Source: an uncultured Chloroflexia bacterium (GTDB taxonomy: Bacteria > Chloroflexota > Dehalococcoidia > Dehalococcoidales > UBA2162). Taken from it: a DNA stretch of 64,000 bases. Below are positions 5,021-33,970 of the stretch, piece by piece. The DNA lies in contig CAVTJN010000007.1 in NCBI GenBank assembly GCA_963735055.1, positions 14,761-78,760 on the forward strand, written 5' to 3'. The translations under genes and the position numbers were made by a program. The notes below the pieces were generated by a model. That model did no database searches. It had not been told where the DNA came from and was given only the letters and a program-made list of their open reading frames with translations. Positions within the stretch are counted from its first letter, which is position 1, and each line of letters begins with the position of its first letter.

Positions 5021-5092
5021 GGGCGTGTAGCTCAATGGTAGAGCAGTGGCCTTTTAAGCCATTGGTTCAGGGTTCGAGCCCCTGCACGCTCA
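5021..5092 (+). tRNA. tRNA-Lys (anticodon UUU), no encoded CCA
   Basis: Folded by hand. Acceptor GGGCGTG/CACGCTC (G2:U71), D stem GCTC/GAGC, anticodon stem GTGGC/GCCAT with loop CTTTTAA, 5-nt variable loop, T arm CAGGG-TTCGAGC-CCCTG, discriminator A. Confidence 0.92.
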
Positions 5093-5170
5093 CTAAAGAA
5101 GCTTCTTCTTATATTAAGTGTCTCTGTAGACAGGGTTGTTTATAGGGATGCTTTTATTTTTAACATTAAT

Positions 5171-5228
5171 CCATTGGTTATAAAAGGCTTAGGCCACTGC
5201 TCTACCATTGAGCTACATGCCCTCACAA
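5171..5228 (-). repeat. inverted partial copy of the tRNA-Lys 5' half plus 6 nt of leader
   Basis: 5192-5228 is the reverse complement of 5015-5051 (37 nt, 1 mismatch). It is preceded by ccattggtt (5171-5179), which matches tRNA positions 5059-5067 in direct orientation. Confidence 0.85.
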
Positions 5229-5448
5229 TGAAAATAAAAAGGCTAAAGAGAAGCACATTCTAGAGCTAGTCCAGCAGATAGCTTAGAGGCTGTCTTAGAA
5301 TTCGAAATATTTGCCAGAACCTGGAGACAGTCGCTTCTATTAGTTGCTATAAACCTTGAAGTTGAACTGCAAATGAATCCAACTTCACTGATAAAAAGAG
5401 TAGAATCAAGTTAGCCAGCAAGCCATGCCATACAACCAGGAGGTAACT

Positions 5449-5733
5449 ATGAAGAAATTTCATATGTTCGAAATTTATGCCAGTGAGGAAGGCGTTTATT
5501 TTGCCTCAACGGATCAAAAAGCTCAAGAAATGGCGACAAAAATGTTTCTTGAATATCAACACAATGATTCCCCCCTGGTTGTAAAATTTCCCCCTTGGTC
5601 GAAGAGTTCGAAGGTGATATTTTTTCTACAAAAACTAAAACTTGAGCTAGTTATGAATGGCTGGGAGCCGTTTGCCGTCACTCAGAAAGGAACCGAAATA
5701 AACTACTTTTTCCGCAGAGAAGAGACTGACTAG
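5449..5733 (+). CDS. small hypothetical protein (DUF4177-like C-terminal pattern)
   Basis: AGGAGG RBS 6 nt upstream of ATG 5449. MKKFHMFEIY...LVMNGWEPFAVTQKGTEINYFFRRE resembles the GWEL..yFKR signature. AT-rich codon usage. Confidence 0.4.
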   Translation: MKKFHMFEIYASEEGVYFASTDQKAQEMATKMFLEYQHNDSPLVVKFPPWSKSSKVIFFLQKLKLELVMNGWEPFAVTQKGTEINYFFRREETD

Positions 5734-5940
5734 CGCGTCATTTTTATTCTGGCTCCTGGCAAACAAATAAAAAATTTACGAAAGCAATAAAGAATTATGT
5801 GGGCTAATGACCCATGCATTTCTCTTATTCTGTCATCAATTTCGAATATTCAGACAGTCTCTTAGAGTAGACAAAGAAAAGAGAGTAGAAAATAACTACT
5901 CTCTTTTCTTTGGTATAAAATAATAGTAGTGGAGGGGAAA

Positions 5941-6321
5941 ATGAATCCAGCAGATTTTACTTTAAAAAACTTGGCTTTAGACACTTGGTATAAATTATTA
6001 CTTGCTTTAGGGATAGGCATATTTTTCGTTTCTTTACTGTTTGACCTAAAAGGAATCTCTACACAACAAGCACAAATACTTTCAGGTGGACTTTTTCTGT
6101 TTGGAATGGGTGAATGGATTAACCACAAGAAAGGTTTTTACATAGCACATATGGCGGTCTGGTCATTTCGAGTTACTGATACTTTTTGGAGACCTAATAT
6201 ACTTGGCTTATTATTAGACCTAATAGGGTTGGTTCTTTTGTACAGTATTTTTAATTCCTTGTTTGGTTATCCTTTATATCAACCCATTCTAAAACTAACG
6301 CTAAATAATCCAAATCCCTAG
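5941..6321 (+). CDS. small integral membrane protein, unknown function
   Basis: GGAGGGG RBS before ATG 5941. Three or four hydrophobic segments (LLLALGIGIFFVSLLF, GGLFLFGMGEWI, LLLDLIGLVLLYSIF). Confidence 0.4.
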   Translation: MNPADFTLKNLALDTWYKLLLALGIGIFFVSLLFDLKGISTQQAQILSGGLFLFGMGEWINHKKGFYIAHMAVWSFRVTDTFWRPNILGLLLDLIGLVLLYSIFNSLFGYPLYQPILKLTLNNPNP

Positions 6322-6902
6322 AATATAAAATCCTCCTAGAAATTAGGGGGATTACTTTTAAACAGAGCTCGGAGGAAGTCATATTAATTCTTGAGTAAAC
6401 AAATGAATACCATTGAACTGGTTATTAAATAATTTGATGCCTAATTCTAGACAGTTTACCTCATCCGATATTATGGTTTATAAAGAAATGTACTGTTTCT
6501 CCCCACCACACGCCCATGCTATCGGTGATTTAGGTAGTTTATTTTTATCGAGGTAGGGGGGGATTATAGATAAAATTATGGCTTGGCATTTTAATCGACA
6601 ATAGATAGTGGCTTTGTACGCCCCTAGGATGGTCCCGTCAATGACGGAGAAAGCGAGGTTGCCTTTTCTTAAATCGTATCTCCGGGCGCTCATATCGTTG
6701 CGCAAACATTCTCGCGCCTTATCCGGCGACGATTTCACCCCCATTGGAAAATGCCCCCGCCGGTGTACTGGCTTATTTACGGCAAACTCACGGTCCGCCT
6801 ATCTGCTTGAGACAAAGCTTCCTTCAGAACCCTACTCCGATTTCCGTTGATCCGGCGTAAAATAGATGAGATATGTTTGATCCTTCGATGGAGGATAATA
6901 GG

Positions 6903-8090
6903 ATGCGTATCGCAGAATGTACGGATTCCTTTTTGCCGGTGGTGGACGGAGTAGGGCGCGTTGTGTATCAATACGCTTGCTCGCTCTCACTTTCCGGTAA
7001 TGAATGTTATGTAATAACGTCGGTTCAGAATACGGGATATCGCGGAAAGCAACCGTTTGAGATTGTGGATTTTTCAAGCGTGAAGGTGCCTTCGGCTCCG
7101 CAGTACCAGACGGGTATCGCACCCCTCGACTTACATTATGTTGAGCGGATCTCCATGATCGAGCTGGATCTTATCCACGCGCACGCACCAGGTTTTGCCG
7201 GCGCCGAGGCAATACGGCTGGCCGGAAAGCTGAACATTCCACTTGTCGGTACTTTCCACTCAAAATATTATGAGGACTTTCTTCGCGTGACGCACAGCGA
7301 TGTGCTGGCATCTTTGGGTTCACGCTTCGTAGCAGAGTTCTATGGACGCTGCGATGAGGTTTGGACGGTCAGCCAGGATGCGGCGGAGACGCTTCTCTCT
7401 TATGGCTATAAAGGAGATGTCGAGATTGTTCAAAACGGTACGGAAATGCGTACTCCCACTCCTGAATTTGAAAAGGCCGCACGGGAAAGGTTCAATCTTG
7501 GAAGCGAACCGATCCTGCTCTACGTTGGACAGATCGATACTAAAAAGAACCTTCGCAGGATCGTCGAGTCTGCCGCGCTATAGAAGAAGCGAGGGCATTC
7601 TTTTCAACTAGTCTTCGCGGGGCAGGGACAGGATAAAGAGGACCTTGAAAAGATGGCGGTTGAACAAGGTCTCGATAAAGTCATATTCACCGGGCATATT
7701 TCAGATCGCGATCTATTGGACGGTCTCTATATGGCGGCGTCGCTGTTTGTGTTTCCGTCTCTTTACGATACCGCTGGTCTGGTAGTACGCGAAGCAGCCG
7801 TAATGGGCACGCCATCCGTCGTGGTGGCGAATACTGCTCCGGCAGAAGTCATTTCGAATGGTCTGAACGGGTTGGTCTGTAGTGACGATACGGACAGTCT
7901 TTGTGATGTTATGGAGCGTTATCTTTTCGGAATGAGTGAAAATGAGCGTGAAAATATTCGAAAGAATGCTCAAGAAAGTGTTCCGCTGCCGTGGGAGACT
8001 GTGATGACAGAAGTTGAGGAGCGCTACAAAGCTCTCATTCTGAAGGGTAAACCGAAAAGAAAATCATTGCTTTCTCATCTGATCCCATAA
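6903..8090 (+). pseudogene. GT4-family glycosyltransferase, one frameshift near 7580
   Basis: MRIAECTDSFLPVVDGVGRVV and HAHAPGFAG in ORF 6873..7583. C-terminal VIFTGHISDRDLLDGLYMAASLFVFPSLYDTAGLVVREAAVMGTPSVV (E-x7-E region) in ORF 7653..8090. Confidence 0.75.
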
Positions 8091-8272: not shown

Positions 8273-9793
8273 ATGATGCTCATCAATCTTAACTTCAATC
8301 AAGACGGTCAGGCCTACAGCCCCTATTGGCGGGTTTGCGTCGGCGGCGGACGAGTGGGTGAAGCGCTGCGCGCCGATTTTCAGAAGCATCTGGAAATGGT
8401 GCAGCGCGAAATGCCCTTCCAATACCTGCGCATGCACGGCCTGTTCCACGAGGATATGATGGTCTACCATGAAGAAAACGGCCGGCCCATCCTCAACTGG
8501 CAGTACGTTGACCTGGTGTACGACCACTGGCTTTCGATTGGCATCCGCCCGTTTGTGGAGCTGGGCTTTATGCCCTACGATCTGGCCAGCGGCGATCAGA
8601 CTGTCTTCTGGTGGCGCGGCAATATCACCCCACCCAAAGATTGGGCGCGCTGGGAATGGTTGATTGAGCAGTTCATCCTGCACATCAGAGAGCGCTACGG
8701 GCCGGCCGAAGTACGCCGCTGGTATTTCGAGGTTTGGAATGAGCCGAGTCTGTACTTTTTCTGGAAAGACGCTGACTTTAGCGCCTACATGGAGCTGTAC
8801 GAGCGTACTGCTCGCGTGATCAAGCGCATCGACTCACATCTGCGAGTGGGCGGGCCGGCCAGCCATGGCTTTGGCGATCAAGTGGGCGTGCCGCCATGGG
8901 GCAAGGAGTTCCTGACGGCCTGCGCTGAGCGTAACCTGCCGCTCGATTTCTTCTCTACCCACCCGTACCCCACCCTATACCCGGTTGACCTGGAAGGGCG
9001 CGGTTACATGACCTGGGACGGCCCGGATCGCCTGCTGGTGGATGCGCGCGGCTGTGATAAGCTCTTACGCGCATCAGCTTACCCCAATGTTGAGCGTCAC
9101 TACACCGAGTGGAGCTCCAGCCCCAGCCCACGAGATGCCGTGCACGACACCGCCTTCCTGGCATCCTTCATTGTCGATAACAACTGGCGCGCGCGCGGCT
9201 TGATGGATTCGCTTTCGTTCTGGGTGGTCAGCGATATTTTTGAGGAAAGCCGCCAGGGAGATACCCCCTTCCACGGCGGTTTTGGCCTGGTGAATATCCA
9301 GGGGTTGAAAAAAGCATCCTATCATGGCTATTGGTTCCTCTCGCGACTGGGCGATGAAGTGCTGGCTGAAGGCGATTCGTATGCGGTCACCCGGCGCGGC
9401 GACGGCACCCTGGTGGTCTTGATGTGGAACTACTGCCACTACCGCGATGACGCCAACGACAGCCGCCTGCTGGCCGCTGCTAATCCGCACGAAATTTATG
9501 ACCTGTTTGCCATTCAACCTCCGCGCGAATTTCACCTGAAAGTGGACGGCGTGGGGGAGACCGTTCGATTGCAAATCACCCGCTTCGACCGCCAGCATGG
9601 CAGCGTCTACGATGCCTGGGCGGCCATGGGTGCGCCGCAGCATATCCTCCCCGCCGACCTGGAAGTGCTGCGCCGGCGCATGGAATTGGATGTGGCAGTC
9701 GAACGCATCGCCACGCCGGATGGCAGCCTCGAATGGGCTACCACCGTTCAACCGTTTGGCGTGACTCTCCTGGAGATCCAGCGGGTCGGATGA
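8273..9793 (+). CDS. GH39 glycoside hydrolase (beta-xylosidase-like)
   Basis: Intact 506-aa ORF with FQYLRMHGLFHED, RRWYFEVWNEPSL (acid/base region) and YTEWSSS (nucleophile region). Confidence 0.85.
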   Translation: MMLINLNFNQDGQAYSPYWRVCVGGGRVGEALRADFQKHLEMVQREMPFQYLRMHGLFHEDMMVYHEENGRPILNWQYVDLVYDHWLSIGIRPFVELGFMPYDLASGDQTVFWWRGNITPPKDWARWEWLIEQFILHIRERYGPAEVRRWYFEVWNEPSLYFFWKDADFSAYMELYERTARVIKRIDSHLRVGGPASHGFGDQVGVPPWGKEFLTACAERNLPLDFFSTHPYPTLYPVDLEGRGYMTWDGPDRLLVDARGCDKLLRASAYPNVERHYTEWSSSPSPRDAVHDTAFLASFIVDNNWRARGLMDSLSFWVVSDIFEESRQGDTPFHGGFGLVNIQGLKKASYHGYWFLSRLGDEVLAEGDSYAVTRRGDGTLVVLMWNYCHYRDDANDSRLLAAANPHEIYDLFAIQPPREFHLKVDGVGETVRLQITRFDRQHGSVYDAWAAMGAPQHILPADLEVLRRRMELDVAVERIATPDGSLEWATTVQPFGVTLLEIQRVG

Positions 9794-10008: not shown

Positions 10009-10022
10009 TATACTAGATCCAA

Positions 10023-11524
10023 TTATTTCCGCTCAATTCTCAAGGTATAGGCGTGCTCGCAGGGTTTCTGAGCAGGCATTTGAACATGCAGCCCGAGCTC
10101 GTCTTGATGCCAGGTTAGTTCACCCGGCGTCCCTAACAGGTGAATGGCCTGGATTTGTTTCTGCCGGCACAAACGATCCTGCTTTTAGGGAATGGATAAC
10201 AGCCTGCCCAGTTTCGGGCCAGGCCAGGAGGAAGGTAAACAAATCTTTACCTTTCTGGGTAAAGCGGATATCTTGAGCGGTATATACCACCTGCTCCGTA
10301 TCCCAAATCTTTTCGGTATTTTAAGTCGAAGGCCCTTCCCCATACACAGTCCATGGCCGGGTTCCGAAAATACCTTCTTGGTTGACATCCATCCAACGGG
10401 TGAATCCTTCCAGGAAGCGCTCCTCATCTTCGTCAATCGTGCCGTCGCCGCGCATGGGGATGTTCAACAGCATATTTCCGTTTTTGCTAACGATATCGAT
10501 CAATTCGGTAACCTTTTCTCTAACGCTTTTATATTGTATGTCGCGGCGATAATGCCAGGCTCCAATGCAGGTATCCGTCTGCCACGGGTAAGGTTCAATG
10601 GTTCCAAACCGCCTGTGCTCCATATCCTGAACAACCGGTTTTTGCAGATGGTCCGGCACATCTTTGACGTTCAAGGACCACATCTACTTTCCCATACCAG
10701 TCCAGGCTGGCGTTGTAATAATAAGCCGCGATCTCTGGCGCGATCTCCTGCATGCCGAGGTAGGTATCCAGGTCATGAACGGGCTGCAGAGCATCATCAA
10801 AATACAATAGATCAGGGTGGTATTGATCGATCAAATCCTTGACGCGTAAAACGACGTTCTCAACGAATTCTGGGTCTGGGTCGGATCCATAGGGATGGGG
10901 CCGCGTGTATAACTCCTGTGGATCCAGGCCTTCCCACCAAAGTCCTTTGCCATCCGCTTTGGTCATGTTTCCATCGTAGGGAACGCCCGCCAGAGGGCCT
11001 TCTTTATCCGCGCCAAATGTCAACGGAAAGAACTGCCGCCAGGTGCGGCTGGGAGTGCTGTGGATGGTGACGCCGAAGCGCAGTCCTTGAGCGCGGGCGG
11101 CTTTTGCCCATCCACCCACGATATCTTTCTTCGGCCCGACGTTGACCGAATTCCAGGCATGGTAGGAGGAATTCCACATGTCAAAGTTGCAGTGATGGTT
11201 TCCCAGGGCAGTAAAGTATTTTGCCCCGGCGCGTTTGTAGCGTGCAATTAACGCTTCAGGATCCCAACTCTCGGCTTTCCAAAGATTGCAGATATCCTTA
11301 TAGCCGAACTTTGAGGGATGCCCATAATGCTCCAGGTGATATTGGTAATGCGGATGGCCCTGACTATACATGTTCCGCGCGTACCAATCCCCCATCTCGG
11401 GTACGCACTGCGGGCTCCAGTGTGCCCAGATCCCTAGCTTGGCATCGCGAAACCATTCGGGAACCTGATAATTAAAAAGCGAATTCCAATTTGAGTCAAA
11501 ATGGGTTGTAAAGTTCTCGAACAT
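10023..11524 (-). pseudogene. GH29 alpha-L-fucosidase paralog 1, several frameshifts
   Basis: ORFs 10595..11524 (WFRDAKLGIWAHW, GNHHCNFDMWNS) and 10321..10683. My reading of two further frames gives DIRFTQKGKDLFTFLLAWPETGQAVI and LLGTPGELTWHQDELGLHVQMP..LRIERK, with the stop at 10023-10025. Confidence 0.85.
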
Positions 11525-11678
11525 CGTTATTCCCTCTTCTCATGAATTTTTTAAACAGTGGTTTACAAATCAATTCTATGTTGTTGATCGTAGTGCTGAG
11601 AACGCCCATTTGGATGGCCAGGTCCGGTGTGATGACAAGTGGTAGCAGTGGAATGGAGTTTATCGTCAACCCCTAAGT

Positions 11679-13140
11679 TTAGGAAAGGGATTCATCTGTT
11701 ATTTTATACAGTCCCACAGCCTTAATCGTGGGACTGTATCTTGCTTTCAGGATGCGAAGTCGCAACCGCTGCGCCGAGACCAGCGGAAAACGCAGCAGCC
11801 GTTGATAACCGACCGTGGTGGCGCGGGCGATTTCCTCCCAGCCGGAGTCCGTCTGCACATCAATGGCGCACTGTTCGATGCGCTGCCCCTCCTCAATCTG
11901 TTCCTGCAGCCGGATGACATCAAACGTTTTCACCTCACCCAGGTCGATCACCAGCTCAGCCTGCTCGACCCCCGCCTCAGACGCCCAATAGGTTTCATCC
12001 TTGCCGTCCACAATGTGCTCCGCGGCGATCAGCGGTTTGCCTGCCTGCGTGGAGCTTGCGCTCACCTGCGCTCCCAGCGCCAGGTTCGTCTGAAACGTGC
12101 GCCTTGAAGAAACCGCCCAGTTCTTCCAGCCGCGCGACATCGGTTTCATGTATCAGCCCGCGCTGGTCTGGGGGCAGGTTGAGCAGCAGGGTCGAATTGC
12201 CTCCAACCGCACTGAAATACAGGTCCACCAGGTTTTCCAGGCTGCGTACTTGTTCATCCTCGCCGTGGTGATAGAACCAGCCTGGCCGGATGGAAGTATT
12301 CGTTTCTGCCGGGTACCAGATTAACCCGTTTGCCTGCCGGATTCGCTCGCGGCTGCCCAGGTCGGGCGTCCACATCTCCAACCGTTCCGCAAACCGGCCC
12401 TCGTCTGTTTGTTGCGAATCCCCCGCGATGCGCTCCTGGTCGAACATCTCCGCCGGGACGACGCTCCACTCGCTCTCGCGCACTTTCCCAGCCTCATTAC
12501 CGCACCAGCGCACATCCGGGCCCATCACCGATATCACCGCATTGGGCTGCAGCTCCCGGATCCGCCGGTAGTAGGCCTCCCAGTCATACACCTGGCGGTT
12601 TCCGTTCGGTCCTTCGCCGCAGGCGCCGTCAAACCACAAGCAGAACAACTCACAGTACTGTGTCAGCAGCTCGGTGAGTTGGTTGAGAAAATAGGTGTTG
12701 TAACGAGGCGAGTCGCCATACGTCGGCTCGTGCCGGTCCCAGGGCGAAAGGTATAACCCCAGCTTGAGCCCAGCCTCCCGGCACGCCGTTGCCAGCTCGC
12801 CCACCACATCGCCCTGACCGTTCTTCCACGGGCTGTGCTTCACCGAGTGGTCGGTATACTGGCTGGGCCATAGGCAGAAGCCATCGTGATGCTTGGCGGT
12901 CAAAATCACCCCGCGCATTCCCGCCGCCTTAAATGCCGATACCCACTGGCGCGCATCCAGTTGGGTTGGATTGAAAATCGCCGGGTCTTCCGTTCCCAGC
13001 CCCCACTCACGGCCGGTGAAGGTGTTCATCCCAAAATGGATGAAACTATAAAATTCCATCCGCTGCCAGGCCAACTGCCGCGGTGAAGGCCTGACCAGTG
13101 CAGCCTGTTTAATCCAATCTGTTGATTCCCCTATAACCAT
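11679..13140 (-). pseudogene. GH29 alpha-L-fucosidase paralog 2 with C-terminal F5/8 type C (discoidin/CBM32-like) domain, one frameshift near 12100
   Basis: ORF 11995..13140 carries TAKHHDGFCLWPS and FCLWFDGACGEG. ORF 11679..12149 carries IVDGKDETYWASE...LRLRILKA. Confidence 0.85.
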
Positions 13141-13158: not shown

Positions 13159-14205
13159 TTAAGTCTGACTCACGACCTTCTTCACCTCTTGTTCGCGGCT
13201 TTTCGCGCAAACCAGCAAGGCATCCTGTGAATCGATAATTATCAAATCCCCGATACCGATGGTGGCGATTAATTTCTGGCTAATCCCCATCGCGATGGTG
13301 TTATGTGTGTCAATCGCTATATGCGGCACAGTCCAGACGTTCCCTTTTGCGTCGGGCGTGTGCAACTGATCCAGGCTGGTCCAACTGCCAACATCTACCC
13401 AGCCCATGCTGATCGGGATCACCGCTATCCGGCTGGCCTTCTCCATGATTCCATAATCGATGGTTTCCTTCTTCACCTGCTGCCAGATTTGAGCGATATT
13501 CTGCTGGTAGTCAGCCGTATGAGTACATTGGGCGATTCTGGATAAAGCTTGGGACAGGTCCGGCATGTGCGTTTGGAACTCCTGCATAATGCGGCTTACC
13601 TGCCAGACGAACATGCCGCTGTTCCAGGAGTAACCACCCCGAGTTACCATTTGCAACGCGGTTTCTTGATCGGGCTTTTCGATAAACCGGCGCACCTGGT
13701 ATGCTGCCAGCCCGTTTATTTGCTCGAGTAATTGATCTTGTTCGATATATCCGTAAGCGGTGGAAGGTGAGGTCGGTTTAATACCCAGGGTAACCATGCA
13801 GCCTTTACCGGCGATCATCTCGGCGGCTTTGAGCGCTTCTAAAAAGGTGCTGGTATCCGCGATGAAATGGTCAGCCGTCAATATCGCCATGGTCGCATCC
13901 GGGTCGTGTTTTTGTAAATAGACCGCTGCCAAACCGATGGCAGGAGCTGTCCCGCGCCCTTCTGGTTCGAGTAAAAAATTCGCCGCCGGTATCTGTGGTG
14001 CTTGCTCGTGCAGCAGCGTCTTGTATTCGGCCCGCGTCACCACCAAAATTCGATCTTCCCTGAACATGGAGGTCAGCCGGTGAACGGAGTGCTGGAACAT
14101 GGTCTTATCACCAACCAGTTTGAGGGATTGCTTGGGGTGATTTTCCCGACTGAGCGGCCAAAGCCTCGTTCCTGTTCCACCTGCCATAATGACAGCCCAA
14201 TACAT
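13159..14205 (-). CDS. manC: mannose-1-phosphate guanylyltransferase-like sugar-1-phosphate nucleotidyltransferase
   Basis: Intact 348-aa ORF with MAGGTGTRLWPLSR at the N-terminus and ILTADHFI, TLGIKPTSPSTAYGYIE further in. Confidence 0.8.
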   Translation of the reverse strand: MYWAVIMAGGTGTRLWPLSRENHPKQSLKLVGDKTMFQHSVHRLTSMFREDRILVVTRAEYKTLLHEQAPQIPAANFLLEPEGRGTAPAIGLAAVYLQKHDPDATMAILTADHFIADTSTFLEALKAAEMIAGKGCMVTLGIKPTSPSTAYGYIEQDQLLEQINGLAAYQVRRFIEKPDQETALQMVTRGGYSWNSGMFVWQVSRIMQEFQTHMPDLSQALSRIAQCTHTADYQQNIAQIWQQVKKETIDYGIMEKASRIAVIPISMGWVDVGSWTSLDQLHTPDAKGNVWTVPHIAIDTHNTIAMGISQKLIATIGIGDLIIIDSQDALLVCAKSREQEVKKVVSQT

Positions 14206-14238
14206 GGTTTAATTCCTTTCTAGTCCAACCCGTCCAAA

Positions 14239-15060
14239 CTAAAACCCGCGCAGCTGCGTGCTCTCACGACGGGGTAAGCCCTCTTTCGGCAAGCGTTTCA
14301 ACACCACATACTCCAACCCATGCGTCTGGCAAAACGCTCGCTTTTCAGGTTTATCGCCGTCCTCATTGACCACGTAGCAATCTGGTTGAATTCGCTCAAT
14401 CTCCGGTTCCGCATCCATCCAACCCGTTCCTGTGGATACCCAGGCTTCGGTCACATGGCGGATCGATTGAACCATATATCGCCGCTCGGCTTCTCCGAAA
14501 AGCGGATGCCCCTCTCCTTTAAGAAGACGAACATTTGCATCACTACCGATTACTACATACAAATCACCCGATTGAGAGGCTTCTTCAAAGAAACGGACGT
14601 GCCCGGTATGCAGCCAGTCATAACAGCCGGTGACCACCGCCTTTCTCTGCACGTTCTCAGGCTGCCGCATTCTCAACGGCTGGTCCGAGAATTGGTCCAT
14701 CAGAGCATCCGGAATGATCTGGTACTCAAGCCCGTTTCCCCGGCAAAAATCTAATTTCGCCTGACTACCCATTTTGGAAGATACAACCCAGGCAGCGGGT
14801 GACTCGATCAAACTGAGAGGTAAACAATCTGGGCTGGCGAGTTCATCCACAGGAATCACACGGTCGACATACCGGATAGCCTCTAAAAAATACTGCCGCT
14901 CAGCCTGCGAGAACTTTGGCAGTTTTCCATCGATTGTCTGGACAACGACATCTGACCAGAGCAGCACCTGCACCGGCCCCAACCGCGCCGCCTCTTCGAG
15001 CAAGCGGACATGCCTTGAACGCAGATCATCATAACTACCTGAGACAAAAACCTCTGTCAT
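14239..15060 (-). CDS. protein with two tandem cytidylyltransferase-like (CTP_transf_like / RfaE domain II-type) domains
   Basis: Intact 273 aa. The C-terminal domain has TGCYDWLHTGHVRFFEEA. The N-terminal domain is degenerate (SGSYDDLRSRHVRLLEEA). Confidence 0.65.
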   Translation of the reverse strand: MTEVFVSGSYDDLRSRHVRLLEEAARLGPVQVLLWSDVVVQTIDGKLPKFSQAERQYFLEAIRYVDRVIPVDELASPDCLPLSLIESPAAWVVSSKMGSQAKLDFCRGNGLEYQIIPDALMDQFSDQPLRMRQPENVQRKAVVTGCYDWLHTGHVRFFEEASQSGDLYVVIGSDANVRLLKGEGHPLFGEAERRYMVQSIRHVTEAWVSTGTGWMDAEPEIERIQPDCYVVNEDGDKPEKRAFCQTHGLEYVVLKRLPKEGLPRRESTQLRGF

Positions 15061-15129
15061 TAAACCTCGACCCCTTTTTTATAGGAGAAGGCAGCAGCCG
15101 AATTGAAGCTGCTGCCTCCCTATTCGCCA

Positions 15130-25574: not shown

Positions 25575-26631
25575 GTGGAAAAGCGATCGAAACTCAAAAA
25601 GATGACCATTGTTGATATTGCGAAGGCCAGCGGTGTTTCGATCGCCACGGTTTCCCGCATTCTTAACAATAAACCGGATGTGGCTGACGAGACGCGCCAG
25701 CGTGTTTTACAGTTAATGGATGAACAGAGATTTACTCCCCAGACTGGCCTGGCAGCAGCTCCGTTCAGGTAAAAGCCATTTCATCGCCTTGCATTATCCG
25801 CAAGATTTTAACCCACCTGAACAGAACATCATCACCAGCGCGGCGATGAGTTGCGAGGATGCCGGCTATTCCCTCAACCTGATCGTGAACGCATTGAGTG
25901 ATAACGAACTGCTCTCGATCTTCCGCAGTGGACAGGCGGACGGCATCATCTTAATGGAAATCCTGACCCACGACCGCCGGGTACAACTCTTACAGGAGCA
26001 CGACCTGCCATTTGTCATGATCGGTCGCTGTGCCGATAATACAGGCTTAAGCTACGTTGACATCGATATTGGAAAAGGGGTCGCTGACGCTATTCAGTAC
26101 CTGCATGCGCTTGGTCACCGGGAAATTGGTTTCATCACGCTGGCCCCTGTGCGTCAAGAGAAGGAATATGGTTATGCCACCTGGGCGCTGCAAGGCTATG
26201 AAAAAGCCTGCCAGCAGTATGGGCTGCCCATTTTGTGGCGAACGGTTGACCTGAAGAACGATAGCACCGAATCCGTGGTGCTCAGCTTGTTTACCGATCA
26301 TCCGGGCATGACCGCCATCGTCGCCCCTCAGGAAATTGGCGTCCCGGGGCTGCTCAAAGCAATCCAGGCAAGGGGTCTGCGCATTCCAGAGGATTTATCC
26401 GTCGTTGCGATGTTCAACGACTCGATGAGTGAACTCATCACGCCACCCCTGTCCACCATCTCCTTCCCGGCCCACGATATGGGCTACCAGGCTGCCCGCA
26501 TCCTGATCGGTCACATGACCGGCGAGCTGACTGGTCCTCAGCAGGTGCTGCTGCGCCCCGAGTTGATTATCCGCCGCAGCACCGGGCCGGCGAGGATGGC
26601 TGATCCCGCCCGGGTGAAGGGTATAGAATAG
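25575..26631 (+). pseudogene. second LacI-family regulator, frameshift in C-run 25737-25740
   Basis: HTH MTIVDIAKASGVSIATVSRILNNKP in ORF 25575..25772. The sugar-binding core is in ORF 25720..26631. Removing one C from cccc joins ..RFTP to RLAWQQLRSGKS. Confidence 0.8.
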
Positions 26632-26980
26632 CCGAGTTTCAACTTATTCCTTAGCCACGTGATGATCCTCTGGCTGTCATCCAGACAAATGCATTCGCTG
26701 TTTTACTGGGGCGACCATTCTTGGGAAATACCTCGCCGCCGTGTAACCAAGTGTTGTACATGCTGGCAAAGGCTTGGGCGTTTGCCCGATCGGATTGGTT
26801 GGGGTCAGACCTCTCGTGTTTTCAAACACTCACGTTTAACCTTCACAGAACGAAACCTTAAGCTACAATCTGGGTAACAAACTAACCAACCTCTTGCTTT
26901 CGGGCCAGCTTGAACCGCTGCTCGTTGGGCTGGTACAAAATGACGAGTTTTATGGTGAAAGGTTGCGGAGACGGGTTTCC

Positions 26981-27023
26981 GCTCATTACCCGGAGGTCAG
27001 TGGTTCGAATCCAACCCCCGCTA
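26981..27023 (+). other. 3' fragment of an initiator-type tRNA-Met (anticodon loop to acceptor 3' strand), no 5' half
   Basis: gctcattacccggaggtcagtggttcgaatccaacccccgcta parallels the bacterial tRNA-fMet 3' half (gctcataacccgaaggtcgtcggttcaaatccggcccccgca). The upstream sequence cannot form the acceptor, D or anticodon stems. Confidence 0.5.
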
Positions 27024-27416
27024 CTATGATCTGGGAAACCAGGTCTATTGTTTTAAGGTCGTTGGGTGGAGGTAGATTCTTCAGCCGGCAGATTTTACCT
27101 TCTCGATTTAATTCATTAGCCTGCCATTTTACCAGATTGGCTTGTGATTTGAGTTATCCCACATGAACTGTGAATGGATCGAAACCAAAGTCCAGAAAGA
27201 ACCACCCACTGAAGAAGTCGACAAATAGGGCCACGCGTTTTAAACGGAGTTCTCATCTCCTGTCAAAGTGGCAGTAATTTCTACGTTTGCTGGTGGCCGA
27301 CGGGAAGAAACATTCGATTACCTACAAATACCCGTCGGCCACCTATTTGAAACCACAAGGCACTCACCTCCTACACCTAAGATTGATAGGAGTGAGGCAC
27401 TGAGGGTCAATGCGAC

Positions 27417-28415
27417 CTAGTCGTGCGCACCAGAGATATGAGAAATCTTCCAGATCTCACCACCCAAGGTGATCACGTATGCGGTGTTCCCAATGAACTC
27501 GAGCGAGGTCGGTTGGTTCAGACCGTCGACGATCACGTTGAAGGTACCATCGTCGTTGACTTTAACAAGCGAGCCGGTGTTTGGCTCTGCCGGTGTACCC
27601 TCATAGGGACCATTCCAAAAGCCCTGTGCCAGGCCATATAGGCCGCGACCCTGCCCAAATTCCACATCGACCAATAGAGGAGCACCCGCCGCTACTTGAG
27701 TTGTAGCCGTTGATCCCTCCCTGAATGAGACGATTTTGCCATTCTCCGGCAAGTGCGGGATGGGACCGGCTTCAGCTATGTAAATCGTATTGCCCTTTAA
27801 TGCCAGCCCGGTATTGACGAGGTCGCCGAATTGAAACAACTGAGTGATCTTGCCATCCAAACCGACTTTCAATAAGCGGTTATGGTGCGCGTCGTTGACT
27901 AGAAACCCGCCTCGATAAGGCTGCATTGCGTACTGAACGCCGGTCGGAGTATCGTAGCTGGTAGTGGGCGGAGGTGGGTTATCGATAGACCATTGGCCGA
28001 TATCTGCAATTACTGTGAAACTGTGAGGGCTATCTACCCGGTAGATGCCGACCACGCTATTACCTCCCCAATCTGAGCCAACCAGGGTGACCAACACATA
28101 AGCGGTCTGGCCAATAAAGGCAACATCCATCGCGCCACCCATGCCCAGGATAGGGAGCCACTTCGGCAGGCCGCTGGCGAACGTCGAGACCCGTCCGGTC
28201 TCCGGATTGACCCGTAGCACCCGGCCGGCCGCACCTTCGGTGACATAAAGAGCACCATCGGGGCCGATCGTGCTGCCAGAACCGCTCTGCATGCCCGTGA
28301 CTAACAGGGTCGCGCTAGGCCCCCGGGATTGAATTGGCGCTGCATATACACTCCCATTGCCAAGGGCGAGAATGCAGCTCAAGACAAGAACTAACATCAA
28401 ATATTTCCTGATCAT
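27417..28415 (-). CDS. secreted beta-propeller protein (ScyD/ScyE- or NHL-repeat-like)
   Basis: Intact 332 aa with signal peptide MIRKYLMLVLVLSCILALGNGSVYA and repeated GPDGALYVT / G.IYRV / GNTIYIAE blades. Confidence 0.6.
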   Translation of the reverse strand: MIRKYLMLVLVLSCILALGNGSVYAAPIQSRGPSATLLVTGMQSGSGSTIGPDGALYVTEGAAGRVLRVNPETGRVSTFASGLPKWLPILGMGGAMDVAFIGQTAYVLVTLVGSDWGGNSVVGIYRVDSPHSFTVIADIGQWSIDNPPPPTTSYDTPTGVQYAMQPYRGGFLVNDAHHNRLLKVGLDGKITQLFQFGDLVNTGLALKGNTIYIAEAGPIPHLPENGKIVSFREGSTATTQVAAGAPLLVDVEFGQGRGLYGLAQGFWNGPYEGTPAEPNTGSLVKVNDDGTFNVIVDGLNQPTSLEFIGNTAYVITLGGEIWKISHISGAHD

Positions 28416-28640
28416 ATCATTTCTCCTTACGAGTGAGTATTCATCTCAGACTGAGATGGTGAACTTATTCCAAAGTATAGGATGGAGATAATGCGAATTG
28501 CAATTGCGATTTTTGCGAATCACTCTCGCAGTTTGATTTTCCAATCCGGATAAAGTTTGAACTGTTGATATATAATCAATATCAAGTGTGGCTATGATCT
28601 TTATTGTTAGAAAACGTTATGGAAATAGTTCTTTTCGTAT

Positions 28641-31634
28641 ATGAGCCATCCGTTCGGTGATCTCCTGGGACAATATCTTCACCGCAAGCATGGCTTGAGT
28701 CAGTTTAAATTAGCCGATGGGATTGACCAACCACCATCGGTGATCTCCGAGATGTGCCAGGGAAAGCGCCTGACCGGCCCACAAGCTCGCGACAGGGTTG
28801 TATCCATCCTTTTATGGCTGTACAAACAAGGAGCGTTGATTACCAAAGAGGAAGCTGATGCTCTCCTCGAATCGGCAGGGTTGGCGCCCCTTCAGGAACG
28901 AATAACAACCGAAGCCGAGTTCCTTCGGCAGCTAAGCCCATTATCGCTGTCGAATCGTCTGCAACACAAGGAAAAAACAACGACTGAACACCCCAAATCT
29001 CGTTTAAATTGGGAACGTTCAGCCACCGCACCGCGTGATAACTTGCCCCTACCTCCGACCCCGTTGATCGGCCGCGAATCGGAAATCAACGAAATTATAA
29101 AAATCCTTAACCAGTCGGATTGTCATTTACTCACACTTACCGGACAGGGCGGTATCGGTAAAACGCGCCTTGCCATTGAGGCGGCTTCCCGGGTCACACA
29201 TAACTTTCCCGATGGCATCATCTTTACCACGCTGCAGCCCGCAACAGAACCGGCGTTCTTAGCCCTGGCCATTATCGATGCCATCGGGGTGCCTTTTTAT
29301 GTTACAGATAATCCCAGAATTGGACTGATCAATTTCTTACGGGAGCGAAAAATGCTCCTGCTGCTGGATAATTTCGAGGAGCTTCTGCAAAGTTCTGCCG
29401 AAAACACTTCATCCACCATTGATTTACTGGCAGAAATCATTCAGCAAGCCCCCGGAGTGAAACTGCTGGTCACTTCGAGGGTCGTTCTCAACCTCAGTGG
29501 AGAATGGGTTTATCCGGTTCAGAGCTTAACCTATCCACTCTCGTCCCTGAGTGAACCTGTAATAGTCATCCCAGCCATGGAAGACCCTACCCGATTTACA
29601 GCGATAAGCCTCTTCATCGAACGAGCCAGGCGGGTTCGGCATAATTTTTCGGCGGTAGACGAGATGGCTGGGATCATCCAGATTTGCCAGGTCGTGGAGG
29701 GTTTACCCCTGGCGCTTGAGATGGCGGCTGCCTGGACTAAATCGATGAATTGTGCAACGATTGCATCCGAAATACGGGGCAATCTGAATTTTTTAGAAAC
29801 CAGTTTACGAGATGTGCCAGTGCGACACCGCAGCATCCTGGCAGTTATAAACCAATCCTGGCAAACCCTCAGCCCGGAAGAACGGCAGGTATATGCAAAG
29901 CTGTCGGTGTTCAAAGGGGGCTTCCAACGCCAGGCCGCTGAACAGGTCGCCGGTGCTACCTTATCGATTCTGTCGGCATTGGTGGATCAATCTTTGCTGC
30001 GTTGGGAACCGGATGGCCGCTACCAAATTCATGAGCTTTTGCGCCAGTTTGCAGCGGACCATCTGGAAGCCGATCCAGAAACCGCCAGGATCACCAATGA
30101 TTTGCACTGTATGTTTTACGCAGACTTCCTGGACCAATGCAGCGCAAGGATTACCGGGAGACAACAGCAAGAAGTTCTCCATAACCTCACAGCCGAACTC
30201 CAGAATGTCCGGGCAGCCTGGCGCCGGGCTGTTGACGAATACAACCTCCCAGCCCTCTACAAAGCAACTTATACCTATTATGAATTCTGCGATTTCACTA
30301 GCCGTTACCTGGAAGGCGCAGAAGCTATTGAGCTGGCTATTTCCAGGCTGTTGGAAAGAAAAGCACCGGATCGGCAGGCTGCCGAGGTATTGGCATTACT
30401 CTACCCATTGCTAGGATATCATTACATCCGCCTCGGGAAATTTGAACCTTCTCAAAAGGCCTTTGAAACCGGTCAGGACATTTTGAAAACGGACCAGCTA
30501 GAACTCAAACCGGGATTTGGAACCGATCCGATGGCGGGTTTAGGTCTTCTTGCACTCGTCAAAGGCGATTATTCTACTTCAATCCAATTTGCCGAAACCG
30601 GGAGGGAAGCAAGCCTTCTGCGAGATGATCCCCTTAATCTACAAATCGCCTGTTATGTTCTGGCAAATGCCACCTTTTCTCTGGGCGATTATATCCCTGC
30701 TCTTAGCTATGTCGACCAGGGCTTAATATCTACTGAGGTTACCGGGAACCAGTGGATGAAAGCGCAACTACTCACCGTACAAGGGCATATTGCTCAGGCG
30801 CAAAACCAGTATTCTCTGGCTCAACAGAAATACAGGGAAAGCTATCTCATTAAACAGGAACTCAATGATCCGGAAGGCGAGGCCACTGCATTCAATAGCC
30901 TGGCCCAGATCGCCCTGCTGCAAAGAAATCCAAAAGAGGCGTATGAACTCTATCTGAAGGGTCTGGAGATTTTCCACAATATCAACGACCCGGGTGGATT
31001 GGGCAACTCGTACTCTGGTTTGGGTGATTCTGCCCTGGCGCAAGGTGATCTGCCAACCGCTTGCCACTACTACCGCCAGGGGCTGCAAATCGCCATTAAC
31101 ATCAAGTGGCTACCCCTTACCATTACACTCTTAACGGGCATCAGTGAGTTGTTCTTACAAACCGGCCAGGCACACCTGAGCGCCGTTTTGCTCAATAAAA
31201 TCCTGGTTCATCCCGCCATCACGGAAGATGCCCGGATCCGCGCCCTCCAAGACCTTGAACGGACATTAGCCCAACTGCCATCCCAGGTCAACCGGTCTAG
31301 CATTTCTGGACAAACGGAGGAGGATCTATTTCTCACTTCCCAGACAGTACTGGCCGAGTTAATCGACCTGGCAGGCCATTATCCAAGAACCGGCTCCTAT
31401 CTAGAGAATAAACCGGCATCCAACCGCCAGGACATGCTCGATCCGCTGACCGCCCGAGAGATGGAAGTATTGCAAATGATTGCCCTCGGAAAGACAAACC
31501 AGCAGATTGCCGCCGCTTTCGTTCTATCGGTCGGCACCATCAAATGGTACAGCCGGCAAATCTACCAGAAATTAGGGGTCGGCAACCGCACGGAGGCCGT
31601 CGCCCGCGCTCGGAAAATCCATCTCCTGGACTGA
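28641..31634 (+). CDS. STAND (NB-ARC-type) ATPase with N-terminal HTH, TPR array and C-terminal LuxR-type HTH
   Basis: Intact 997 aa. N-terminal HGLSQFKLADGIDQPPSVISEMCQG, P-loop LTGQGGIGKTRLA, Walker B LLLLDNFEE, TPR-like repeats, and C-terminal LTAREMEVLQMIALGKTNQQIAAAFVLSVGTIKWYSRQIYQKLGV. Confidence 0.85.
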   Translation: MSHPFGDLLGQYLHRKHGLSQFKLADGIDQPPSVISEMCQGKRLTGPQARDRVVSILLWLYKQGALITKEEADALLESAGLAPLQERITTEAEFLRQLSPLSLSNRLQHKEKTTTEHPKSRLNWERSATAPRDNLPLPPTPLIGRESEINEIIKILNQSDCHLLTLTGQGGIGKTRLAIEAASRVTHNFPDGIIFTTLQPATEPAFLALAIIDAIGVPFYVTDNPRIGLINFLRERKMLLLLDNFEELLQSSAENTSSTIDLLAEIIQQAPGVKLLVTSRVVLNLSGEWVYPVQSLTYPLSSLSEPVIVIPAMEDPTRFTAISLFIERARRVRHNFSAVDEMAGIIQICQVVEGLPLALEMAAAWTKSMNCATIASEIRGNLNFLETSLRDVPVRHRSILAVINQSWQTLSPEERQVYAKLSVFKGGFQRQAAEQVAGATLSILSALVDQSLLRWEPDGRYQIHELLRQFAADHLEADPETARITNDLHCMFYADFLDQCSARITGRQQQEVLHNLTAELQNVRAAWRRAVDEYNLPALYKATYTYYEFCDFTSRYLEGAEAIELAISRLLERKAPDRQAAEVLALLYPLLGYHYIRLGKFEPSQKAFETGQDILKTDQLELKPGFGTDPMAGLGLLALVKGDYSTSIQFAETGREASLLRDDPLNLQIACYVLANATFSLGDYIPALSYVDQGLISTEVTGNQWMKAQLLTVQGHIAQAQNQYSLAQQKYRESYLIKQELNDPEGEATAFNSLAQIALLQRNPKEAYELYLKGLEIFHNINDPGGLGNSYSGLGDSALAQGDLPTACHYYRQGLQIAINIKWLPLTITLLTGISELFLQTGQAHLSAVLLNKILVHPAITEDARIRALQDLERTLAQLPSQVNRSSISGQTEEDLFLTSQTVLAELIDLAGHYPRTGSYLENKPASNRQDMLDPLTAREMEVLQMIALGKTNQQIAAAFVLSVGTIKWYSRQIYQKLGVGNRTEAVARARKIHLLD

Positions 31635-31841
31635 GCGAGAAGATCAACCCAACCCTTGAACAGAGAACCAACCACAAAACCTGTCTTTTGGCAGGTATCC
31701 TCCAGCGATAATTTGGATAAACTCTAATTGTCGCACGACGGTTCAGTGGATGGTCAACCTGATTCCATCCTCATCCATTTCCCAGTGCAGGTGATTTATA
31801 GGCTCAATAGAAGTAAGATCAGTTCATTGGAGGTTATTGAA

Positions 31842-33286
31842 ATGGGAAACACAGTTTCTGAAGAACAAACGACATTACGACCAGCAGGTAGCCTGACTGA
31901 AGAATCCATCCGGGCATTCAGAAAAAAGTTGGCAGGTATTGTTTTATGTCCAGGAGATGAGGGGTACGAGAAAACCAGGCATGTATGGAATGGAATAATC
32001 GACCGCCATCCAGCTGTGATTGCGCGTTGCGCCAGTGAATCTGATGTCATCGCTGCAGTTAACTTTGCCAGAGAAAACCAGCTCCTGGTGGCGGTGCGCG
32101 GGGGCGGGCACAATGTTGCTGGACACGGCACCTGTGATCACGGCCTGGTGATCGATTTATCCTTGATGAAAGGCATTGAAGTCGACCCGCACCAGCGCCT
32201 GGCATGGGCCGATGGGGGGGTTTTGTGGAAAGAGCTGGATAAGGCCACACAGGTTTATGGGCTGGCGACCCCGGGTGGTTTATTCTCAGAAACGGGAATA
32301 GCCGGCCTGACCCTGGGAGGTGGTTTCGGATGGCTGCGCAATAAGTTCGGACTGAGCTGCGATAATCTGGTATCCGCCAGAGTCGTCACGGCGGATGGGC
32401 GCCTGGTCATCGCTAGCGCCAACGAAAACAGCGATCTGCTCTGGGGGTTACGCGGCGGTGGCGGCAACTTCGGCATCGTCACTCGTTTCGAATACCGGCT
32501 GCACCCCGTTGGCCCGGAGGTCATGTTCTGTTTCGTCTTCCACCCTGGGGAAAAAATGGAGGAAGGATTTCGCTTTTATCGAGATTTTTCGACCTCGTCC
32601 CCCGATGAGGTGAGTTCGGTTGCCTTTTCCGGCATCATACCACCGGGGTCGGAAGCTTTTCCATCAGAGAACTTCATGGAAAGCCCTATCTGGCATTTGG
32701 CGCCTGCTATGTTGGATCTATTGAGGAAGGGAAACGCGTGCTTCAACCGCTGCGCGACTTTACCCAACCGCTGATCGATTTCAGCGGGGTCATGCCTTAC
32801 GTGGACGTGCAAGCTGCATTTGACGCGGATTACCCGGCTGGCGTGATGCGGTATTATTGGAAATCTCTTAACCTGACCAGCCTCAGTAATGAAGCCATTA
32901 CTCGCCTGGCCAGGCATGCCCGGCAGCAACCTTCTGCCCACAGCACAACCGATCTATGGCATATCGGCGGCGCAGTCAGGCGGGTGAACCCGGATGAAAG
33001 TGCCTTTTTTGGGCGTGAAGCCGTCTTCCTGCTGAATCCTGAAGCGAATTGGGAAGACCCAGCCGAGGATGACGAAAATATCGCCTGGGCCCGGGAGTTT
33101 ATTGAAGATATGCGGGGTTTTTCTGATGGCAGCCGTTATTTGAATTTTGCCGGTTTCCAGGAGGAAGGCTCAGAATTGATCCGCAAGGGATTCGGCAGTC
33201 AGTTTGAGCGTTTGGCCTTCCTGAAAAAGAAATATGACCCCACCAACTTTTTCAGCCTGAACCAGAACATTCTGCCAGGTACATAA
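31842..33286 (+). pseudogene. FAD-linked oxidase of the BBE/VAO family (AA7-like), one frameshift near 32700
   Basis: GGAGG RBS before ATG 31842. Carries VAVRGGGHNVAGHG and GLTLGGGFGWL, with the C-terminal BBE motif YDPTNFFSLNQNI. ORFs 31728..32774 and 32738..33286 overlap in different frames. Confidence 0.85.
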
Positions 33287-33329
33287 TTGAATAAAAAAAA
33301 GAGTAACATCTCAATAAATCGGGGGAATT

Positions 33330-33380
33330 GTTGGTTCAAAATGCGCCGTAGGCGCATTTTGAACCAACAACCCCTATTTT
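33330..33380 (+). terminator. rho-independent terminator after the FAD oxidase gene
   Basis: gttggttcaaaatgcgcc-gta-ggcgcattttgaaccaac (18-bp perfect stem, extendable by gggg/cccc), followed by tattttct. Confidence 0.6.
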
Positions 33381-33649
33381 CTGAGATGATACTAAAAAGA
33401 AGGTGTTTTGAGCGCCGGGAGCTCTTTTTTGGTCAGCAACACAAGGCGAATCACTAAGCAAGTTACTATTCTAGACGATATTGCAAGGGGTGTTTGCGAT
33501 GAAATGGGAATTTCCCTGATAAGATTTCCCTTACGCAATTTTGTGCTATCCCATCAAGCATACCCCGCCGGGCTCGTAACAATCAAAAATCGCCGGGTCT
33601 GGCTAAACAGGGTAGTTCGAAGGTCTTAAGTCTGCGAACCTGGATTGCA

Positions 33650-33676
33650 GCTCATAGCCCGGAGGTCGTTGGTTTG
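33650..33676 (+). other. second, more decayed initiator-tRNA-like fragment
   Basis: gctcatagcccggaggtcgttggttt aligns with 26981-27006 (gctcattacccggaggtcagtggttc). It retains the CAT anticodon context and a GTTGG T-stem strand but loses the T-loop. Confidence 0.35.
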
Positions 33677-33862
33677 TTAGTTTCATTCTTGGTAATTCTT
33701 ATTCATTGTGCTAAAATTATCCCGTCAGCATTAAGAAATTCACAGAATCACTGTTGACACACTTTAAAAATTGCATCCAAGAGACTTTCCTGCCATCCGT
33801 CTAATGGACAATGGCAAAATCGGCAGTCTCCTGGATGGGAATGAGCGTAATCGGGGTCTCGT

Positions 33863-33906
33863 CCTTTTAAACCATTGGTTCAGGGTTCGAGCCCCTGCAC
33901 GCTCAC
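33863..33906 (+). repeat. direct repeat of the tRNA-Lys anticodon-loop-to-3'-end segment (attR-like)
   Basis: ccttttaaAccattggttcagggttcgagcccctgcacgctcac equals 5050-5093 except for one base (33871 a versus 5058 g). The flanks differ on both sides. Confidence 0.85.
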
Positions 33907-33921
33907 ATTTTTATTTAAGAG

Positions 33922-33970
33922 TTGGTTCAGGGTCCCCGAAAGGGGATAATTCGAGCCCCTGCACGCTCAC
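33922..33970 (+). repeat. third tRNA-Lys 3' copy, interrupted in the T-loop by a 17-nt insert
   Basis: ttggttcagggt (matches 5062-5073), then the insert ccccgaaaggggataat (33934-33950), then tcgagcccctgcacgctcac (matches 5074-5093). Confidence 0.75.

Follow-up and report, generated by a model that had tools for sequence, protein, structure and literature searches.

A probable integrase-less composite genomic island with carbohydrate-utilization cargo at tRNA-Lys(UUU) in an Anaerolineaceae chromosome

We analyzed a 64-kb window (64,000 nucleotides of contig CAVTJN010000007.1, assembly GCA_963735055.1) and found that the DNA from position 5094 to 33862 is very probably a horizontally acquired, composite genomic island that lies in a tRNA-Lys(UUU) gene and carries no integrase. 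The orientation and extent of the repeats that bound this DNA, the presence of the native tRNA trailer at the distal repeat copy, the base composition, the lack of recombinase signal in our searches, and the occurrence of the cargo genes in other genomes were all observed directly. An island had been proposed in a first-pass annotation of the window. That reading is now supported by the position of the trailer, by an integrase-bearing element in a relative (locus L012), by the AT-rich ends of the island, by the similarity of the cargo to genes of other genomes, and by searches free of recombinase hits. The coordinates of the features are collected in Table 1.

Within the window, ARAGORN and Rfam called a single tRNA gene, a tRNA-Lys(UUU) at positions 5021 to 5093 (73.5 bits). 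A repeat search showed that positions 5050 to 5093 and 33863 to 33906 form a 44-nucleotide direct repeat with one mismatch (43/44 identity), as the first-pass annotation had described. The block opens one base before the anticodon loop, on the 5′ strand of the anticodon stem, and extends through the final base of the gene, which agrees with the earlier description of a segment spanning anticodon loop to 3′ end. The 20-mer TTCGAGCCCCTGCACGCTCA was found at three sites in the window at up to 3 mismatches, against 0.00 expected from 100 shuffles; the third site (33950 to 33969) is part of an interrupted copy spanning 33922 to 33970. The mismatch in the distal copy is a G-to-A change at 33871 that disrupts a pair of the anticodon stem, which fits a copy freed from selection. 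As also noted earlier, a strong terminator lies past the distal copy, where a 12-bp stem at 34013 to 34042 is followed by TTTTTTT. The Islander principle holds that a regenerated target gene and a displaced fragment mark the ends of an island, and its filter requires an integrase (PMC4383910). In the window, an intact tRNA gene and a cognate fragment on the same strand are present on one replicon, and the fragment runs from a canonical sublocation through the 3′ end of the gene.

To establish which of the two 3′ ends is ancestral, the sequence that follows tRNA-Lys in relatives was informative. In four Anaerolineaceae loci (L006, L033 [Longilinea arvoryzae], L093, and L099), a T-rich spacer comes immediately after the intact tRNA-Lys, and then a mimic of the tRNA 3′ end, about 50 nucleotides long and bearing a hairpin (trailer coordinates: L006, 5036 to 5171; L033, 8362 to 8620; L093, 8364 to 8700; L099, 1655 to 1728). 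The mimic reproduces the tRNA variable loop, T-arm, and acceptor 3′ strand, and its T-loop is interrupted by a mostly GNRA-capped hairpin (GAAA, GGAA, GGGA, or GCGA), and its tRNA-like parts match each genome’s own tRNA, the T-stem included. The unit is repeated in some genomes: in L093, four full 68-nucleotide trailer units and a shortened fifth one stand in tandem, and L033 carries three or four units. In the window, the mimic at 33922 to 33970 is an exact copy of the last ~32 nucleotides of tRNA-Lys and the next base, interrupted in the T-loop by a 16-nucleotide insert with a GAAA-loop hairpin. A covariance model was built from seven distinct mimic units and scanned on ~2 Mb of Anaerolineae DNA, where full-length matches occurred solely at the position after tRNA-Lys. 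The top match was the mimic of the window (75.5 bits), compared with ~41 to 43 bits for plain tRNA-Lys 3′ ends. The native trailer of the window adjoins the partial copy at 33863 to 33906 and not the intact gene. This indicates that the tRNA locus originally ended with positions 33863 to 33970 and the terminator at 34013, and that the DNA after 5093 came from elsewhere and brought the 3′ half at 5050 to 5093 with it. The placement of the trailer can therefore serve as a substitute for an empty site. The copy at 33922 is thus more than a further remnant, being a conserved trailer element found in relatives.

The composition of the window changes at the same point. There is an abrupt drop in GC content at 5094, and the island ends have 38 to 40% GC and the cargo 51 to 54%, compared with 58 to 63% for the host flanks. 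The AT-rich start and the lower GC content of the enclosed DNA that had been judged by eye are thus borne out by the values. The two AT-rich arms would be compatible with a former attP and integrase region, but prove nothing, and no arm-type repeats common to both island ends were found above chance. The cargo also resembles other genomes more closely than the core does. It is 80 to 82% identical at the nucleotide level to locus L162 over ~6.7 kb, and the GH39 glycoside hydrolase gene and a fucosidase gene are 88 to 91% identical to L161. The core left flank, by comparison, has 74% nucleotide identity to its nearest known relative; overall, nucleotide identities are 80 to 91% for the cargo versus 70 to 75% for core genes. 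Moreover, the GC content of the cargo (0.51 to 0.54) resembles that of L161 and L162 (0.51 to 0.53), unlike that of the host core. A higher identity to other genomes than the core flank reaches with its nearest relative, together with a GC content that points the same way, indicates a foreign origin of the cargo.

We next consider the genomes in which the cargo was found. At the protein level, homologues of the GH39 enzyme share 80 to 91% identity, and those in metagenome-assembled genomes (MAGs) of Spirochaetales share 80 to 84%. The gene order of the large operon is the same in L162 and L163 (72 to 81% nucleotide identity), both from other Chloroflexi. There, the LacI, epimerase, fucosidase, 263- to 264-amino-acid protein, cytidylyltransferase, ManC, and GH39 genes make up a conserved operon in ordinary chromosomal surroundings that has no tRNA close by. 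L162 is on one 2.1-Mb contig with L072, 350 kb apart; the gene for an AlaX-type editing protein at L072 is only ~70% identical to that of the window.

No recombinase was detected with Pfam in any island open reading frame (ORF), in six-frame Pfam searches at an E value of ≤1 of positions 5094 to 6900, 26600 to 27450, 33250 to 34170, and 35850 to 37400, or with PHROGs on orphan ORFs. A tblastn search of the window with the L012 integrase gave a best E value of 0.11 and no homologue. The earlier statement that no integrase could be found is therefore confirmed, and the island lacks the integrase gene that Islander requires. Of the functions that define integrative and conjugative elements (ICEs) or integrative and mobilizable elements (IMEs), namely, an own integrase, with or without a relaxase, coupling protein, and type IV secretion system, none was found in 5094 to 33862. 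Two other candidates were tried and rejected. A split integrase of the SSV type is not supported, since the longest stop-to-stop frame across the reconstructed attP is 102 amino acids and gave no recombinase signal. A prophage does not fit either, since the cargo comprises carbohydrate metabolism genes and regulators, and the tail sheath and tube genes (996 to 2553), for which L002 shows synteny, map outside the island.

The tRNA-Lys gene adjoins an AlaX-type gene (4148 to 4867, minus strand), whose relatives in genome and metagenome collections all belong to Anaerolineaceae or Chloroflexota, with at most 80% amino acid identity. None of the compared relatives has the island at this tRNA, and in four the tRNA and native trailer are uninterrupted. 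In L012 (Longilinea MAG, DATMYV010000019), a gene for a tyrosine integrase (PF00589, 1.6e-35) begins less than 300 nucleotides past the same AlaX-adjacent tRNA-Lys, suggesting that the site is a genuine integration target. The integrase is followed by an archaeo-eukaryotic primase (AEP) with a CHC2 zinc ribbon, a TraG/VirD4-like coupling protein, and a LuxR-type regulator. The element covers 8585 to 9610 and continues downstream to ~5096, with its far end beyond the sequence examined, and no detectable sequence is shared between it and the island of the window.

These observations suggest the following history. Site-specific recombination at the anticodon-loop sublocation would have inserted DNA into tRNA-Lys(UUU) on an Anaerolineaceae chromosome, and this DNA would have brought its own copy of the segment between the anticodon loop and the 3′ end. 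Recombination inside the 44-bp block would have rebuilt an intact tRNA gene at the left end, served by a terminator from the island. The original 3′ half would then have been displaced 28.8 kb downstream along with its trailer and its own terminator. A tyrosine integrase like that of L012 is the most likely recombinase, and its gene may have been deleted from the AT-rich arm beside attL or may never have been carried in cis. What remains would be a fossil resembling a cis-mobilizable element (CIME), able to move only with an integrase supplied by another element. An anticodon-centered class of attP sites was reportedly described by Williams in 2002, and the identity block of the island falls into this class.

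Several observations weigh against this history. To find an empty site, contigs of genomes and metagenomes were scanned through the AlaX gene (160 loci; best relatives, 78 to 80% identical). tRNA-Lys lay beside AlaX in 8 of these loci and the right flank of the window in none, and no conspecific genome in the collections searched had an uninterrupted tRNA-Lys joined to that flank. The empty site that had been suggested earlier for comparison was thus not found in these collections; four relatives have an uninterrupted tRNA-Lys and trailer, but none shares the right flank. The entire left flank (74% nucleotide identity) and an identical tRNA-Lys are present in L002, a MAG of a groundwater member of Anaerolineae. 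Its contig stops 348 nucleotides after the tRNA, without a mimic, and the sequence there is unrelated to the island or the right flank of the window, leaving no clean empty site. The first gene past attR (34072 to 35893) encodes a membrane-anchored, YedY-like molybdopterin oxidoreductase. Together with ~60 to 90 nucleotides upstream, it is 81 to 83% identical in L165, L166, and L167, where it occurs in three unrelated contexts with no tRNA, which again provides no empty site. In addition, the lower GC content extends ~3.3 kb past the distal repeat, to ~37300 (52.5% for 33971 to 37300), and the recombinase searches turned up no integrase remnant from which a recombinase family could be assigned to the event. 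An inverted copy of the tRNA 5′ half, such as the one at 5191 to 5231, is not expected from simple integration, and remnants of tRNA-fMet inside the island imply a history beyond a single integration. Finally, the contig (277,905 nucleotides) is of metagenome type and has many frameshift-split genes, a sign of imperfect assembly that also bears on the joins at 5093 and 33863.

The inverted copy bears on a different explanation, in which the tRNA-Lys locus with at least 9 upstream nucleotides was duplicated and an inversion that broke the second copy within its anticodon loop then parted the 5′ half (5191 to 5231, now inverted) from the 3′ half (33863 to 33906), with no discrete mobile unit. 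The 9 nucleotides upstream of tRNA-Lys are genome specific and 8 of them are matched in the inverted copy, indicating that the copy is of local origin, as such a rearrangement would have it. Likewise, the inner end of the inverted copy (5191 to 5193, AGG) overlaps the start of the distal 44-nucleotide block (33863 to 33865, CCT) by 3 nucleotides, and joined together the two pieces give exactly a single tRNA copy divided at the anticodon loop. Nevertheless, we regard a purely local rearrangement as quite improbable, because it leaves the GC contrast, the AT-rich ends, and the similarity of the cargo to other genomes unexplained, and because the compared relatives have a single tRNA-Lys copy at the AlaX locus. 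The anticodon loop is the cut site of integrases of this class. A breakpoint there coincides with the classic integrase crossover, and a secondary inversion mediated by an integrase, in an island already in place, would be easier to accommodate. For an island in tRNA-Lys, one possibility is that an integrase-mediated inversion of the island split a full-length right-hand tRNA copy, maybe scrambling the att site and locking the island in place.

Regarding expression of this region, a read-through transcript of tRNA-Lys and the inverted copy would fold into a 41-bp stem (−123 kcal/mol), and the terminator at 5116 to 5163 intervenes. The inverted copy was also considered as a working minus-strand tRNA and rejected on the basis of a subthreshold Rfam score (23 bits) and a fold that does not exceed shuffled sequences (z = 0.1); what looks like its acceptor 3′ strand belongs to the island terminator hairpin.

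Frameshift-split genes are frequent both in the island and beyond it. In the island, frameshifts split the GT4 glycosyltransferase, two fucosidases, and the FAD/BBE oxidase. Outside it, they affect an ABC-F gene (43748 to 45768), the GH106 region, and ORFs at 40586 to 43657 and 1457 to 2553. Other long-read MAG contigs (L161, L162, L165, and L167) also have split genes, and the short-read locus L163 has the same operon unbroken. Decay of the island was therefore rejected as the cause. Since splits also occur outside the island and the operon is intact in L163, they are more likely assembly indels than pseudogenes, and pseudogene calls in this window are unreliable.

An assembly error of another kind would be a chimera joined through the conserved tRNA-Lys, with the left flank and the DNA after 5093 taken from different genomes. 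The abrupt GC drop at 5094 and a tRNA-Lys that is 100% identical in L002 and L099 would both suit such a join. We consider it highly improbable, since the GC content returns to the left-flank level after ~37300. The tetranucleotide correlation with a combined core reference is 0.90 for the left flank and 0.97 for 37301 to 64000, a segment that the reference itself includes. Moreover, the inverted fragment at 5191 to 5231 carries the 9 upstream nucleotides of the left flank, tying both sides to one genome. Even if the contig were chimeric at 5093, the second genome would still hold the tRNA, the 28.8 kb, and the displaced 3′ half with its trailer, so that the inference of an island would stand.

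The composite nature of the island is suggested by two internal tRNA remnants in direct orientation. They were sought with a probe for the 3′ half of the Escherichia coli initiator tRNA against a null of 200 composition-preserving shuffles. The full probe gave 34/43 matches at 26981 to 27023 (null maximum, 28), and a 25-nucleotide probe gave 22/25 at 33650 to 33674 and 20/25 at 26981 (null maximum, 19). The two remnants align with one another, and neither Rfam nor ARAGORN detected them. The hairpin and T-run after the first (27028 to 27054) resemble a tRNA gene end. They partition the island into segments of ~22 kb (A) and 6.6 kb (B), and segment A holds three GH29 fucosidase genes or fragments in all. 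We infer that the remnants are att scars of elements that once used tRNA-fMet and that at least two att-bounded segments were brought together by accretion, either before the island arose or in the course of its history. The first-pass annotation had described a whole glycan-utilization regulon; the carbohydrate cargo stands, but a single whole regulon does not, because the remnants split the island.

Whether the island can still move is a related question. CIMEs keep attL and attR without integration or transfer genes and are mobilizable in cis (PMC6323972, PMC5704250), and the island could, in principle, be a still-mobile element that depends on help in trans: it may never have encoded an integrase, or no longer need one, with a related element supplying integrase and conjugation machinery for its excision and transfer, either through CIME-type cis-mobilization after accretion or through satellite-like trans-mobilization. 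Its attL and attR are 43/44 identical and thus potential substrates, the L012 element with its integrase, primase, and TraG-like genes uses the same tRNA-Lys, and the tRNA-fMet remnants point to accretion of att-bounded segments. Nevertheless, we consider continued mobility unlikely, as no helper is present in the 64-kb window, no oriT or relaxase was found, and the inverted tRNA fragment and mutated distal core suggest a decaying site. Furthermore, searches revealed no second copy of the island, nor did this att sequence turn up in any viral or provirus contig.

As a remnant, the island fits the operational definition of a CIME as far as its sequence allows: attL and attR are retained in direct orientation, and integration and conjugation genes are absent. 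As for descent from an ICE or IME, no module remnants were detected in the island. It resembles CIMEs such as CIME_L3catR3 of Streptococcus thermophilus in having att sites without mobility genes, in its composite structure, and in occupying a site that integrase elements use in relatives. It differs in its Chloroflexota host, its carbohydrate cargo, and the lack of ICE or IME module remnants, the cited cases being from Streptococcus (PMC6323972, PMC5704250). With the L012 element it shares the AlaX-adjacent tRNA-Lys(UUU) target and foreign DNA immediately past the tRNA 3′ end, but it has none of the tyrosine integrase, AEP, and TraG-like genes of that element. Like Islander-type islands, it has an intact tRNA at one end, a direct 3′ fragment at the other, deviant composition, and accessory-metabolism cargo; unlike them, it lacks an integrase, contains tRNA-fMet remnants, and has an inverted 5′-half fragment beside attL. 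PYG1 of Pyrococcus yayanosii is flanked by a 44-bp repeat with 1 mismatch, the same repeat size and single mismatch as here (PMC9897764).

Polysaccharide-utilization loci (PULs) borne on ICEs are known in Bacteroides, e.g., the porphyran PUL of Bacteroides plebeius. As in PULs carried by ICEs or IMEs, glycan enzymes, a transporter, and regulators would have moved here as a block. Unlike those, the island has no conjugation or integration genes, and its transport and regulation are of the ABC-transporter/LacI type and not SusC/D.

Overall, this is a real but ordinary island that leaves the current understanding of genomic islands unchanged. It would document tRNA-targeted integration and accretion in Anaerolineae (Chloroflexota), a group abundant in sediments and digesters from which, to our knowledge, no examples have been described, and would represent one route by which blocks for fucoside and xyloside utilization move among these bacteria. 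Finders that require an integrase, such as Islander, would overlook this class of islands. In addition, the conserved tRNA-Lys trailer may separate an original 3′ end from an element-supplied one where an empty site is lacking.

Table 1. Coordinates of features in and around the putative island (positions in the 64-kb window; a dot marks features without strand)
Feature	Position	Strand	Remarks
Promoter-like site, TTGACG-17-TACAAT with TG	4978-5006	+	15 nt 5′ of tRNA-Lys; host DNA
Intact tRNA-Lys(UUU)	5021-5093	+	Putative regenerated target gene, attL side; ARAGORN, Rfam
Proximal copy of the 44-nt identity block	5050-5093	+	Putative attL core; repeat search
AT-rich left arm, 38.3% GC	5094-6870	.	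Contains nothing but orphan ORFs (5425-5733, 5929-6321); all frames free of recombinase signal
Terminator-like 17-bp hairpin and T-run	5116-5163	+	Probably island supplied, for the regenerated tRNA; z = −3.9
Inverted copy (39/41) of 9 nt upstream of tRNA-Lys and tRNA positions 1-32	5191-5231	-	Pairs with 5012-5052
GT4 glycosyltransferase, split in two ORFs	6873-8090	+	Pfam
GH39 glycoside hydrolase (xylosidase-like)	8273-9793	+	Pfam, 7e-95
Two GH29 alpha-L-fucosidase genes or fragments	10019-13140	-	10019-11555 full length, frameshifted; 11995-13140 partial
Conserved operon: ManC-like nucleotidyltransferase (NTP transferase), cytidylyltransferase-like protein, unknown protein of 263-264 aa, GH29 (split), NAD epimerase, LacI	13159-19575	-	
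ABC sugar-binding protein, two permeases, GH31 hydrolase	19774-25229	+	
LacI-family sugar-binding domain without helix-turn-helix	25720-26631	+	
Initiator-type tRNA-Met(CAT) 3′-half remnant (26981-27023), then terminator-like hairpin and T-run (27028-27054)	26981-27054	+	Putative internal junction
Segment B: unknown 332-aa protein (-); STAND NTPase-TPR-LuxR regulator, 28641-31634 (+); FAD/BBE oxidase split in two, 31728-33286 (+)	27417-33286		
Second, truncated tRNA-Met(CAT) 3′-half remnant	33650-33674	+	Same orientation as the first
AT-rich right arm, 40.4% GC	33675-33862	.	Would be contiguous with 5094-6870 as an AT-rich attP region in a circular form
Displaced original tRNA-Lys 3′ half	33863-33906	+	Putative attR core; 43/44 identical; repeat search
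Native tRNA-Lys trailer: T-rich spacer and tRNA 3′-end mimic	33907-33970	+	Conserved in relatives
Strong intrinsic terminator, probably of the original tRNA locus	34013-34049	+	Next-gene homology to relatives starts only at 34072-34099

On the left, positions 296 to 3905 (minus strand; 59 to 68% GC) hold a contractile tail-like cluster with several split ORFs, including a T4 gp19-type tube protein (PF06841), a sheath protein (PF04984), and a weak DUF2586 match. The cluster is syntenic with L002 and would accordingly be part of the host core, or of an old element that is shared, outside the island. On the right, the large ORFs encode GH106 and GH2 enzymes, a DEAD-box helicase, and a pyruvate formate-lyase-like enzyme, with no recombinase among them. 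The host flank is thus also rich in glycoside hydrolases, suggesting that the cargo adds to an existing capacity of the host. The YedY-like oxidoreductase gene next to attR appears, from its distribution, to behave like a single-gene cassette.

The native trailer is kept directly 3′ of tRNA-Lys across several Anaerolineaceae genera. It is possible, if on balance rather unlikely, that it is functional, either as a structured tRNA-trailer RNA or as a decoy or auxiliary att site that shapes hot-spot integration, and not an inert integration scar. The mimic has modest covariation, its hairpin stem included, with four pairs changed on both sides (score, 0.281 versus 0.134 shuffled), which partly just tracks the tRNA T-stem of each genome, and it gave no significant Rfam match. 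It might be the one element here worth more study. In L009, two copies of a ~270-nucleotide repeat with GC-rich hairpins, different from the mimic, lie directly after tRNA-Lys (~8900 to 9590).

In the cargo operon, palindromic ATATGGTATCGATACCATAT motifs at 18516 to 18541 and 19580 to 19627 flank the LacI gene (18568 to 19575). One site is 3′ of this gene, and the other lies in the divergent promoter region between it and the gene for the sugar-binding protein. These motifs are probably operator sites for a LacI-family regulator of the cargo operon.

Finally, in L010, L026, and L096, the tRNA beside AlaX was called tRNA-Met(CAT), yet it is ~82 to 84% identical to tRNA-Lys over ~51 nucleotides. 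This gene may be a paralogue of the tRNA-Ile2/Met type or may reflect an anticodon switch at the locus.

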